NCBI RefSeq assembly: GCF_044324875.1
Contig: NZ_CP172185.1
DNA: 64,000 nt
Source of the DNA: Escherichia coli
GTDB lineage: Bacteria; Pseudomonadota; Gammaproteobacteria; Enterobacterales; Enterobacteriaceae
Strand: one strand, 5' to 3'
The translations under genes were made by a program, and so were the position numbers. Shown piece after piece: positions 31,623-40,900 of the stretch (its first letter is position 1; the number at the start of each line of letters is the position of its first letter). The notes under the pieces were generated by a model. That model had not been told where the DNA came from. It saw only the letters and a list, made by a program, of their open reading frames with translations, and made no database searches.

Positions 31623-33311
31623 ATGAGTGGTGAAAAAAAGGCGAAAGGCTGGCGGTTCTATGGTCTTGTATGTTTGGGCGCAATAGTACTGCTTTCCGCT
31701 GGCGTCTGGGCGTTGCAATATGCTGGCAGTGGGCCAGAAAAAACGTTGTCGCCGCTGGTGGTGCACAACAATCTGCAAATCGATCTCAATGAGCCGGACC
31801 TCTTTCTCGACAGCGACTCTCTGAGCCAGCTTCCCAAAGACCTCCTTACCATTCCGTTTCTCCACGATGTTCTGAGTGAAGATTTCGTTTTCTATTATCA
31901 GAATCATGCCGATCGTCTGGGCATTGAAGGCAGCATTCGCCGCATTGTCTATGAACACGAGCTCACGCTGAAAGATAAGCTCTTTTCGTCACTCTTAGAT
32001 CAGCCCGCGCAGGCGGCGCTATGGCACGATAAACAAGGCCATCTTTCACATTACATGGTGCTGATCCAGCGCAGTGGTTTAAGCAAACTGCTGGAGCCAT
32101 TGTTGTTTGCCGCTACCAGCGACAGCCAGTTAAGCAAAACGGAAATCAGTAGTATTAAGCTAAATAGTGAAACCATCCCGGTTTATCAGTTGCGCTATAA
32201 CGGCAATAACGCCCTGATGTTCGCGACTTATCAGGACAAGATGCTGGTGTTTTCCAGTACGGATATGCTGTTTAAAGATGACCAGCAGGATACCGAAGCC
32301 ACGGCGATCGCAAGTGATTTGTTGAGCGGTAAAAAACGCTGGCAAGCCAGCTTTGGCCTGGAAGAGCGTGCTGCTGAAAAAACGCCAGTACGCCAGCGCA
32401 TCGTGGTCAGCGCCAGGTTGCTGGGGTTTGGCTACCAGCGATTAATGCCTTCTTTTGCTGGTGTACGCTTCGAAATGAGCAACGACGGCTGGCATAGCTT
32501 TGTGGCGTTAAATGATGAATCCGCAAGCGTAGATGCCAGTTTCGATTTTACGCCGGTATGGAACAGTATGCCTGCCGGGGCCAGCTTCTGTGTGGCGGTG
32601 CCGTATTCGCATGGTATTGCCGAAGAGATGCTTTCGCACATCAGCCAGGAAAACGACAAGCTGAACGGGGCGTTAGATGGTGCAGCCGGGCTGTGCTGGT
32701 ATGAAGACTCAAAATTACAAACCCCGCTATTTGTTGGTCAATTTGATGGCTCAGCCGAACAGGCACAACTGCCTGGGAAACTGTTTACGCAAAATATTGG
32801 TGCGCACGAAAGCAAAGCGCCAGAAGGTGTTTTGCCGGTAAGCCAGACTCAGCAGGGCGAAGCGCAAATCTGGCGTCGCGAAGTGAGTTCCCGATACGGC
32901 CAGTATCCGAAAGCGCAGGCGGCGCAACCCGATCAATTAATGTCGGATTATTTTTTCCGCGTGTCGCTGGCGATGCAAAACAAAACGCTGCTTTTCTCCC
33001 TCGATGACACGCTGGTTAATAACGCCCTGCAAACACTGAATAAAACCCGCCCGGCAATGGTGGATGTAATACCCACTGATGGCATCGTTCCGCTCTATAT
33101 CAATCCACAAGGCGTGGCGAAACTGCTGCGTAACGAAACGTTGACCAGTCTGCCGAAGAATCTCGAACCGGTTTTTTATAACGCCGCACAAACTTTATTA
33201 ATGCCGAAGCTGGACGCTTTATCTCAACAACCGCGTTATGTCATGAAGCTGGCCCAGATGGAACCCGGTGCCGCCTGGCAGTGGCTACCCATAACCTGGC
33301 AGCCGCTATGA
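31623..33311 (+). CDS. yfaA: YfaA family protein (DUF2138-like); N-terminal membrane anchor or signal
   Basis: ORF 31581..33311; start chosen at ATG 31623 ([30 protein letters not shown]) with AAGGA SD; first gene of the yfaATSQP cassette. Confidence 0.8.
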
Positions 33312-33931
33312 GGCACGGGCTGCTGGCGCTGATTTGCTGGCTGTGTTGTGTTGTTGCCCATAGCGAAATGCTGAATGTCGAACAGTCGGGGCTGTTTCGC
33401 GCGTGGTTTGTACGCATTGCACAGGAACAACTCCGCCAGGGGCCAAGCCCACGCTGGTATCAGCAGGATTGTGCGGGCCTGGTGCGATTTTCGGCGAACG
33501 AGGCGCTGAAAATTCACGACAGCAAATGGCTAAAAAGTAACGGTATAGCAAGTCAGTATTTGCCGCCTGAAATGACGCTAACACCTGAACAGCGTCAACT
33601 GGCGCAAAACTGGAATCAGGGGAACGGGAAAACCGGCCCCTACGTGACCGCGATTAATTTGATTCAGTACAACAGCCAGTTTATTGGCCAGGACATAAAC
33701 CAGGCGCTGCCTGGCGATATGATTTTTTTCGATCAGGGCGATGCCCAGCACTTAATGGTCTGGATGGGGCGTTACGTCATCTACCACACCGGAAGCGCCA
33801 CGAAAACTGACAACGGAATGCGCGCAGTCAGTCTGCAACAACTTATGACATGGAAGGACACCCGATGGATACCCAACGATTCCAATCCCAATTTCATTGG
33901 CATTTATCGTTTAAATTTTCTGGCGCGATAG
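33308..33931 (+). CDS. yfaT: YfaT family protein (DUF1175-like), signal peptide
   Basis: ORF 33281..33931; start chosen at ATG 33308 ([20 protein letters not shown]), overlapping the yfaA stop as ATGA. Confidence 0.75.
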
Positions 33932-40119: not shown

Positions 40120-40123
40120 TGCT

Positions 40124-40900
40124 ATGCGAAAGATTTTTCTTCCGTTGTTACTGGTGGCGCTTTCGCCTGTCGCTCACAGTGAAGGTGTGCAGGAAGTCGA
40201 GATTGATGCACCGCTCTCTGGCTGGCATCCGGCAGAGGGCGAAGATGCCAGTTTTTCACAATCGCTCAATTACCCGGCGTCGTCCGTCAACATGGCAGAT
40301 GATCAAAATATCTCAGCGCAGATCCGCGGCAAAATAAAGAATTATGCTGCGGCGGGTAAAGTTCAGCAGGGCCGGCTGGTGGTCAACGGTGCCAGTATGC
40401 CGCAGAGAATTGAATCCGATGGTTCATTTGCACGCCCTTATATTTTTACTGAAGGCAGCAACAGCGTGCAGGTCATCAGCCCAGATGGGCAAAGCCGACA
40501 AAAAATGCAGTTTTACTCAACGCCGGGCGCTGGAGTGATCCGCGCGCGTTTACGGCTGGTTCTCTCCTGGGATACGGACAATACCGACCTCGACCTTCAC
40601 GTTGTTACACCTGATGGCGAACACGCCTGGTACGGTAACACCGTGCTGAAAAACAGTGGTGCACTGGATATGGATGTCACGACGGGGTACGGCCCCGAGA
40701 TTTTCGCCATGCCAGCGCCGATTCACGGACGTTATCAGGTGTATATAAACTACTATGGCGGACGCAGCGAAACGGAATTAACCACCGCCCAACTGACGCT
40801 GATCACTGATGAAGGATCGGTCAATGAGAAACAGGAAACTTTCATTGTACCGATGCGTAATGCTGGCGAGTTGACGCTGGTGAAAAGTTTTGACTGGTGA
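40124..40900 (+). CDS. yfaP: YfaP family protein (DUF2135-like), signal peptide
   Basis: 258-aa ORF MRKIFLPLLLVALSPVAHS, 4 nt after the yfaQ stop; last gene of the cassette. Confidence 0.8.
   Translation: MRKIFLPLLLVALSPVAHSEGVQEVEIDAPLSGWHPAEGEDASFSQSLNYPASSVNMADDQNISAQIRGKIKNYAAAGKVQQGRLVVNGASMPQRIESDGSFARPYIFTEGSNSVQVISPDGQSRQKMQFYSTPGAGVIRARLRLVLSWDTDNTDLDLHVVTPDGEHAWYGNTVLKNSGALDMDVTTGYGPEIFAMPAPIHGRYQVYINYYGGRSETELTTAQLTLITDEGSVNEKQETFIVPMRNAGELTLVKSFDW

Follow-up and report, generated by a model that had tools for sequence, protein, structure and literature searches.

The window analyzed in this work, 64,000 nucleotides (nt) of one strand of an Escherichia coli genome (assembly GCF_044324875.1, contig NZ_CP172185.1), carries between positions 31623 and 40900 five consecutive genes, yfaA, yfaT, yfaS, yfaQ and yfaP, which quite probably form the five-gene Enterobacterales orthologue of the Pseudomonas aeruginosa magABCDEF operon and, taking all analyses together, would encode an inner-membrane-anchored periplasmic complex around a non-thioester alpha-2-macroglobulin (A2M) with a defense role. 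As judged by sequence comparison, YfaA is the orthologue of MagB, YfaT of MagC, YfaS of MagD, YfaQ of MagE and YfaP of MagF, with no counterpart of MagA. The system is already known: the genes are annotated in RefSeq, as yfaA (DUF2138), yfaT (DUF1175), “alpha-2-macroglobulin family protein”, yfaQ and yfaP, and work on the orthologue in Pseudomonas goes back to 2013. The version of E. coli is still uncharacterized, and the cassette is a pointer for later work on an open question, namely how a thioester-free macroglobulin protects the cell wall from type VI secretion system (T6SS) effectors.

Five intact open reading frames without internal stops were read from the sequence of the + strand within 31623-40900:
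31623-33311, + strand, yfaA: 562 aa, DUF2138 (Pfam), MagB orthologue with an N-terminal membrane anchor at about residues 10-34.
33308-33931, + strand, yfaT: 207 aa, DUF1175 (Pfam), NlpC/P60-like, MagC orthologue.
33865-38469, + strand, yfaS: 1534 aa, or 1539 aa if counted from the ATG at 33850, MagD orthologue, Type II A2M.
38470-40119, + strand, yfaQ: GTG start, 549 aa, MagE orthologue, two DUF2300 and one SpoIID domain (Pfam).
40124-40900, + strand, yfaP: 258 aa, DUF2135 (Pfam), signal peptide, MagF orthologue.

The ATGA at 33308-33311 is common to the end of yfaA and the start of yfaT, 67 nt are shared by yfaT and yfaS (82 nt counted from the upstream ATG), the GTG of yfaQ abuts the TAA of yfaS (38467-38469), and a 4-nt spacer separates the yfaQ stop from the yfaP ATG. 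Five co-directional genes with these junctions had been described after gyrA in an earlier note on this DNA, and direct reading of the sequence bore this out. The junction geometry suggests translational coupling across the cassette; the tight or overlapping junctions, chiefly the yfaS start within yfaT, probably hold the subunits in fixed proportion.

Related loci were collected by a search anchored on YfaT with one genome per species, and the best 80 of 216, a set biased to close YfaT relatives, were compared: 71 from Pseudomonas and the others from Escherichia (three species), Superficieibacter, Enterobacillus, Yersinia alsatica, Edaphovirga and Candidatus Methylobacter. The five cassette proteins were 40-76% identical, over nearly their full length, to the products of the genes at the same positions in the 71 Pseudomonas mag-type operons; YfaP shared 50-60% identity with the product of the last gene of these operons, and YfaT matched the structure of P. 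aeruginosa MagC (7BK8) with an E-value of 9e-103 and 73.7% identity, the other four proteins being 40-60% identical to their Pseudomonas counterparts. The COG numbers, sizes and patterns of signal peptides and transmembrane helices (TMHs) agreed with those in Table 2 of PMC3735191. Loss of co-occurrence of the five genes, named in the same note as a refuting outcome, was not seen: 74 of the 80 loci had all five on one strand and in the order of the window. Five of the six exceptions in gene order were truncated contigs or loci, and the sixth (L066) was without detectable yfaP/magF. This full-length locus, from Pseudomonas capsici, showed no yfaP/magF downstream of its position 16804 and had the upstream MagA-like copy. 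Such a copy was present upstream in 70 of the 72 non-Enterobacterales loci, the remaining two being truncated, whereas in the window the gyrA terminator sits directly upstream of yfaA. This makes the five-gene form a variant of the Enterobacterales, MagA being absent from every assessable locus of this order.

The P. aeruginosa operon (MagABCDEF, PA4492-PA4487) has the same gene order as here (anchor, NlpC/P60-like protein, A2M, DUF2300 and DUF2135) and shares with the cassette an A2M signal peptide without lipobox, an NRSER bait, the lack of the thioester Cys and the 67-nt overlap. It differs in having six genes, including that for MagA, a paralogue of MagF, against five in the Enterobacterales loci; Gac/Rsm regulation is a feature of the P. 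aeruginosa operon. Bacterial A2Ms have been divided into Type I (ECAM/YfhM and Sa-A2M), which carry a CxEQ thioester and a lipoprotein anchor and have their gene beside pbpC, and Type II (MagD), without CxEQ and with its gene in an operon of six genes (PMC5764988). YfaS showed the Type II combination of A2M domains, no CxEQ, a Sec signal without lipobox and neighbors of the MagB/C/E/F type, though not the six-gene operon with MagA. It showed none of the Type I traits, having no CxEQ, no functional lipobox, and yfaT and yfaQ instead of pbpC as neighbors. The likeness to Type I is that of large periplasmic A2Ms with multiple macroglobulin (MG) domains, a bait and a thioester-domain-like region, which align at MG2 and at the thioester site, and of a peptidoglycan-acting partner encoded beside the A2M, as in the cassette; the difference lies in the CxEQ thioester, the lipoprotein anchor and the two-gene context with penicillin-binding protein (PBP) 1c, none of which was found for YfaS. 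Eukaryotic A2M, complement C3-C5, CD109 and the insect thioester-containing proteins resemble the YfaS type in their MG domains, in a region for bait or processing and in a trap set off by proteolysis, but the YfaS type has neither thioester nor multimeric cage, MagD pairs 1:1 with its partners, and the complex is an anchored one of the bacterial periplasm.

The identification of YfaS as A2M-like, one of the claims of the earlier note, was upheld by Pfam, with matches to MG2 (2e-18), A2M_BRD (4e-17), A2M (1e-12) and bMG10 (8e-6) when the protein was scanned as two halves. YfaS was 50-56% identical to the A2Ms of the Pseudomonas and Methylobacter operons. The profile of an alignment of 16 operon A2Ms (A1) matched the structures of ECAM, Sa-A2M, C5 and CD109; YfaS alone, as a single-sequence query, matched C5 and CD109 and did not retrieve ECAM. 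The same note had found no CxEQ motif, and this was confirmed in two ways. A C.EQ scan of the whole of YfaS gave no hit, the only cysteines being C25, in the signal peptide, and C1189; and the profile alignment placed P-Y-G-G-V-E-Q-T-A-S-R-L-L-P of A1 on P-Y-G-C-L-E-Q-T-A-S-G-L-F-P of the thioester-bearing ECAM (5a42, 4ziq and 4rtd), so that GGVIN of YfaS falls on GCLEQ:
37066-37080, + strand, vestigial thioester site G1068-G-V-I-N1072 of YfaS, aligned on G-C-L-E-Q of ECAM, with G1069 in the Cys column.

Any trapping by YfaS must be non-covalent, as each of the three thioester residues (Cys, Glu and Gln) is substituted. The state of the motif was counted over the 78 operon loci with a readable site:
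GGVEQ: 54 loci, most Pseudomonas.
GCVEQ (canonical CxEQ): 11 loci, including Methylobacter, P. panipatensis, P. delhiensis, P. citronellolis, P. oryzagri and others.
GGV[I/V]N: 9 loci, eight from Enterobacterales and the K-12 reference locus (L001); the window also reads GGVIN.
CGVEQ: 2 loci (L017 and L032).
GSVEQ: 1 locus (L047).
GGVEH: 1 locus (L066).

GGV[I/V]N was the state of all Enterobacterales loci, and by this comparison the E. coli site is the most decayed in the operon A2M family. In each of the GCVEQ proteins (loci L009, L015, L026, L028, L029, L036, L042, L052, L056, L060 and L073) the motif Cys was the sole Cys of the mature protein. The definition of Type II as lacking CxEQ is therefore not family-wide, given that 11 of the 78 operon orthologues keep GCVEQ, a retention which may be a new result.

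The bait was located by correspondence with the MagD segment ANRSERG (847-853), which had been swapped for a tobacco etch virus (TEV) protease site in PMC5764988:
36415-36435, + strand, bait T851-N-R-S-E-R-R857 of YfaS.

In the 16-sequence alignment N852, R853 and R856 and the segment through P876 were largely invariant. The bait neighborhood (YfaS 852-876, window 36418-36492) was near-invariant across the range from Escherichia to Methylobacter, with many basic and dibasic sites, unlike the baits of eukaryotic A2Ms, which are hypervariable; this invariance hints at a specific processing or target protease.

Export or anchoring of all five products, also claimed in the earlier note, was supported by hydropathy and the -3/-1 rule, with the N-termini judged by eye, and the calls agreed with the published SignalP/TMH table of the Mag orthologues (PMC3735191). 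At the N-terminus of YfaA a hydrophobic segment of 19 residues comes after a basic stretch and was read as an anchor from hydropathy. YfaT, YfaS, YfaQ and YfaP each have a basic n-region and a hydrophobic core, with AHS, ANA, TLA and AHS respectively as -3/-1 motifs. The YfaS signal peptide is of Sec type, 38 residues long, without lipobox and with a predicted cut before DD. The sequence I-A-A-C25 of YfaS was considered as a lipobox and rejected, there being only four hydrophobic residues upstream and no conservation in Superficieibacter.

The cassette had been presented as a system of unknown function, a description that no longer fits, as functions of the orthologous magABCDEF have been reported (PMC3735191, PMC5764988 and PMC12663445) and the structure of MagC is available (7BK8). 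[quoted passage not shown] MagA, MagB and MagF co-purify with it (PMC3735191), and with each of them it makes 1:1 complexes, MagF binding it directly (PMC5764988). It binds human neutrophil elastase. When a TEV site was placed in its bait, cleavage was followed by non-covalent retention of the protease (PMC5764988). MagB has a transmembrane helix and is required for the stability, membrane localization and 100-kDa processing of MagD; the forms of MagD are changed in a magE deletion, and MagE was suggested by the authors to be cytoplasmic and chaperone-like (PMC5764988). DUF1175/MagC is reported as peptidoglycan-binding in PMC10318531, citing Zouhir 2021. A CRISPR interference study from 2025 placed the mag operon in the GacA regulon and showed that it shields P. 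aeruginosa from VgrG3 of V. cholerae and Tae1 of A. baylyi, two T6SS effectors that target peptidoglycan, leaving the mechanism open (PMC12663445).

By orthology, YfaS would be exported to the periplasm, where YfaA (MagB) would hold it at the inner membrane and stabilize it, YfaP (MagF) would bind it, and YfaT (MagC) would tie the complex to peptidoglycan. An incoming hydrolase would cut the exposed bait TNRSERR (851-857), and the resulting conformational change would entrap the enzyme non-covalently. The complex would serve to defend the periplasm and the wall from enzymes that come in from outside, which in P. aeruginosa are the peptidoglycan-targeting T6SS effectors and, possibly, host proteases. 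As their predicted folds suggest, YfaT, with its NlpC/P60 triad, and YfaQ may give the complex its own capacity to bind or remodel peptidoglycan, much as Type I A2Ms are paired with PBP1c.

The description of the four partners of YfaS as DUF-only proteins proved too weak for two of them. In YfaT the NlpC/P60 triad Cys55 (DCAG)-His148-His160 was invariant in 81 of 81 sequences, though the Pfam match to NLPC_P60 was weak (E-value 0.0016). The AlphaFold2 (AF2) model of YfaQ superposed with its N-domain on class D beta-lactamases and on the sensor domains of BlaR1 and MecR1, and with its middle domain on SpoIID, and thus appears beta-lactamase/PBP-like and SpoIID-like. S60-x-x-K63 (at the start of a predicted helix, 59-73), S108 and K195-T196-W197 (in a predicted strand, 192-201) were invariant and stand at the positions of the SxxK, SxN and KTG motifs of penicilloyl-serine transferases, the third reading KTW. 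Also invariant were E324 and E334 in the SpoIID-like domain, eight cysteines and, in 76 of 76 loci, HEYLH (520-524, an HExxH motif) followed by D535, E536 and E540; the predicted order of the C-terminus (helix, three strands, helix, helix) fits that of zincins. The profile of the C-terminal HExxH region matched only angiogenin in the PDB, at chance level, with no zincin fold or profile match, and the profile of the N-domain had no match in the PDB. The PBP reading of YfaQ rests on the predicted fold, since the sequence-profile searches gave it no support. Single-sequence PDB searches with YfaA, YfaQ and YfaP returned nothing meaningful, and the YfaA model had no convincing structural relative.

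BlaR1/MecR1 (a class D beta-lactamase-like sensor with an M56 zinc protease) and the SpoIID lytic transglycosylase are analogues of YfaQ only. YfaQ, like BlaR1/MecR1, has an HExxH motif; it differs from all of them in being soluble and secreted, in domain order, in KTW instead of KTG and in the lack of detectable sequence similarity. MagE appears in the literature as an unknown or chaperone-like, possibly cytoplasmic, protein. The combination of beta-lactamase/PBP-like and SpoIID-like modules, as modeled, with an invariant HExxH may be a new result. A wider and more tentative proposal, which we regard as possible without favoring it, is that YfaQ/MagE is a three-module peptidoglycan enzyme or sensor which, together with YfaT, would let the Type II complex both trap hydrolases and sense or repair the wall, in a family that is partly thioester-bearing and whose A2M would be expressed through an embedded start conserved from Escherichia to Pseudomonas. 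If true, a self-contained complex of this kind would explain the protection from peptidoglycan-targeting T6SS effectors. The leads for later work are the predicted catalytic-type domains of MagE/YfaQ, the presence of thioester-bearing and thioester-free orthologues in one family, and the internal start that possibly sets the stoichiometry.

This embedded start lies in a stretch that is read in two frames:
33850-33931, + strand, dual-coding overlap: the last 22-27 codons of yfaT encode, in another frame, the n-region of the YfaS signal peptide.
33854-33858, + strand, Shine-Dalgarno (SD) sequence AAGGA of yfaS, before the start ATG at 33865; another in-frame ATG, at 33850, is an alternative.

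The out-of-frame overlap of 67 nt was found in 79 of the 80 related loci. The yfaS ATG arises from the yfaT codons CGA-TGG (Arg-Trp), and CGA was present at this point in 80 of 81 sequences, high-GC Pseudomonas included. Among 72 conserved degenerate yfaT columns in the 71 Pseudomonas loci, the only near-fixed codons ending in A or T were ACA (68/68), CGA (71/71) and ATA (68/71), all of them inside ACATGGAAGGACACCCGATGGATACC, which corresponds to the SD (AAGGA) and start region of yfaS. General third-position conservation was not higher in the overlap (0.81) than just upstream (0.85); on these codon counts it is the rare codons specifically, not conservation in general, that are informative. 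Methylobacter, the lone locus without the overlap, has CGC at this point, its yfaS frame is interrupted by a stop codon, and its A2M starts 223 nt past the yfaT stop; as read from its sequence, it is a natural control for the embedded start. These observations suggest selection on the embedded start and a coupling of YfaS synthesis with translation of yfaT, and the conserved overlap with a start codon held by rare codons may be a new result. RNA structure as the reason for the conserved rare codons around the yfaS start found no support, with an RNAalifold energy of -6.7 kcal/mol and no compensatory pairs. Three GGA motifs surround the yfaS start, and a possible RsmA/CsrA site was considered as another reason; in the literature RsmA binding is placed at the magA leader.

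Most Pseudomonas, Yersinia and Edaphovirga loci (L008, L009, L026, L029, L057, L074 and others) have a second in-frame ATG where yfaT stops (cgATGA), with a canonical signal peptide after it. Two MagD N-termini are possible in these loci, going by the start codons available, and the second ATG fits the 26-residue signal peptide reported for MagD of strain PAO1 (PMC3735191). The higher-mass forms of MagD in the magE deletion (PMC5764988) might be related to such dual starts. In Escherichia and Superficieibacter the second ATG is lost (ATA plus a TAG or TAA stop; 33926-33931 in the window) and YfaS must consequently start at the embedded ATG; here the overlap encodes just the n-region of the 38-residue signal peptide.

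For all five genes dN/dS was 0.01-0.11 at dS values of 0.2-0.8 (against E. albertii and E. whittamii; yfaA from a codon alignment, owing to a 3-codon indel), values by which all five are under strong purifying selection. The region was matched in 5423 of 5426 complete E. coli genomes, 5178 of which hold at least 80% of it in one piece, and the cassette belongs to the E. coli core genome. Identity of at least 99% over the cassette (window 31400-41000) was seen in 10 of the 5423 matching records, most showing 95-99%; the source strain therefore comes from a sparsely sampled E. coli lineage.

The yfaS gene of K-12 MG1655 (b4500) is annotated as a pseudogene. Compared codon by codon with NC_000913, the K-12 gene has the same length as that of the window and differs in intactness by a lone in-frame nonsense codon:
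37966-37968, + strand, W1368 codon of yfaS, TGG here and TGA in K-12.

The statement in the earlier note that K-12 carries yfaS as a split pseudogene was thus right as to the pseudogene annotation and wrong as to the lesion, a single nonsense codon without frameshift. Its statement that yfaS is intact in the window agreed with the absence of internal stops and the TGG at W1368, while its view of the functional copy as a distinction of this strain was not sustained: the exact K-12 61-mer around W1368 occurred in at most 364 of the 5426 complete genomes, so an intact yfaS is the rule in E. coli, and the genomes listed with the nonsense allele were mostly laboratory K-12 derivatives. K-12 is a natural yfaS null, which is relevant when envelope-defense phenotypes are assessed in this strain. 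The type strain of E. albertii, NBRC 107761 (L004, 9339-9341), has an in-frame TAG at codon 345 of yfaA, which is CAG in the window. Independent of the K-12 case, it is the second nonsense codon that inactivates the cassette, here in a strain from a culture collection.

Several points weigh against a mag-type defense complex in E. coli. No second YfaP-like match upstream, corresponding to MagA, was found in the window or in any assessable Enterobacterales locus, and the thioester site, GGVIN in YfaS against GGVEQ in most Pseudomonas loci sampled, has decayed further here. A scan for sigma-70 promoters found no consensus upstream of yfaA and one internal site, against 7.7 expected by chance. 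The cassette is dispensable in culture, as the nonsense mutations in K-12 yfaS and E. albertii yfaA are tolerated. The literature on E. coli yfaA, yfaT, yfaQ and yfaP offers almost nothing, with incidental mentions only, and the putative fold of YfaQ comes from the AF2 model without sequence-level support. Zouhir and coworkers are said to have found, in 2021, the catalytic residues of MagC in an inactive conformation. DUF1175 is classed as inactive in PMC10318531. Trapping alone cannot explain the T6SS phenotype, because a peptide bait would not be cut by VgrG3, which hydrolyzes glycans. Some of these points would suit a decaying, functionless or silent relic of a system that lost its thioester and MagA in the Enterobacterales: GGV[I/V]N in all loci of this order, no MagA, independent nonsense mutations in two strains and no consensus promoter. 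The relic reading is disfavored by the dN/dS values across Escherichia species and by the retention of the cassette in about 95% of the 5426 E. coli genomes; moreover, no more than 364 genomes, mostly of laboratory strains, have the K-12 allele, and P. aeruginosa MagD is functional though also without the Cys. A relic was accordingly considered highly improbable.

The two other alternatives concern the task of the complex. YfaS might act purely as a protease inhibitor, trapping proteases of host or competitors (e.g., neutrophil elastase), with the other four proteins serving its export, folding, anchoring and stability; the binding of elastase and trapping of TEV protease by MagD and the conserved bait segment speak in favor. 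The only reported loss-of-function phenotype, nevertheless, concerns peptidoglycan-targeting effectors, including the glycan hydrolase VgrG3; DUF1175/MagC is reported as peptidoglycan-binding (PMC10318531); and the invariant triad of YfaT and the SxxK, KTW, SpoIID-type Glu and HExxH of YfaQ would be hard to explain in mere chaperones, which makes pure inhibition unlikely, if credible. YfaQ/MagE could instead be a sensor-protease, a soluble counterpart of BlaR1 whose PBP-like domain would sense damaged peptidoglycan or muropeptides and whose HExxH would cleave YfaS/MagD (165 to 100 kDa), arming the trap upon a breach of the wall. MecR1 and BlaR1 sensor domains were among the best fold matches of YfaQ, the HExxH and D535/E536/E540 lie on consecutive predicted helices after a three-stranded sheet and were invariant in 76 of 76 loci, and the forms of MagD were altered by deletion of magE (PMC5764988). 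An HExxH pentapeptide by itself is weak evidence, though, no zincin match was obtained by fold or sequence (the profile gave chance matches to angiogenin only), the third PBP motif is KTW and not KTG, and the cytoplasmic, chaperone-like role suggested for MagE (PMC5764988) points elsewhere, so that a sensor-protease was judged decidedly doubtful. The anchored, mag-type defense complex thus remained the preferred explanation of the cassette.

The borders of the cassette are marked by hairpins. Two hairpins lie past the end of gyrA (31474), upstream of the cassette, and the second of them has a U-run:
31494-31511, first hairpin after gyrA, from the hairpin listing.
31522-31551, + strand, strong terminator-like hairpin with U-run (RNA fold of 31478-31560: -30.9 kcal/mol, z -4.3).
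40929-40973, no strand assigned, strong hairpin flanked by A- and U-runs (RNA fold of 40901-40985: -25.9 kcal/mol, z -3.9).

The hairpin at 31522-31551 probably separates gyrA transcription from the cassette, and about 70 nt (31553-31622) lie between the gyrA terminator and the yfaA start. The atoB gene (40974-42158, - strand) is convergent with yfaP, and the hairpin at 40929-40973 probably closes the cassette as a bidirectional terminator. Scans for tRNAs in the window and for Rfam families inside the cassette gave no match, none of the five cassette proteins was matched by the anti-phage models of PADLOC-DB (PADLOC), and NCBIfam named YfaA alone (PRK11410, “hypothetical protein”), leaving the other four cassette proteins unnamed. 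The flanks were the usual surroundings, with glp, nrdAB, yfaL, ubiG and gyrA on one side and ato, rcs and micF/ompC on the other. Rfam detected there two or three copies of naRNA4, a nucleoid-associated RNA derived from REP elements, and MicF upstream of ompC (51240-51430 / 55091-55184), which are expected in this region and unrelated to the cassette.

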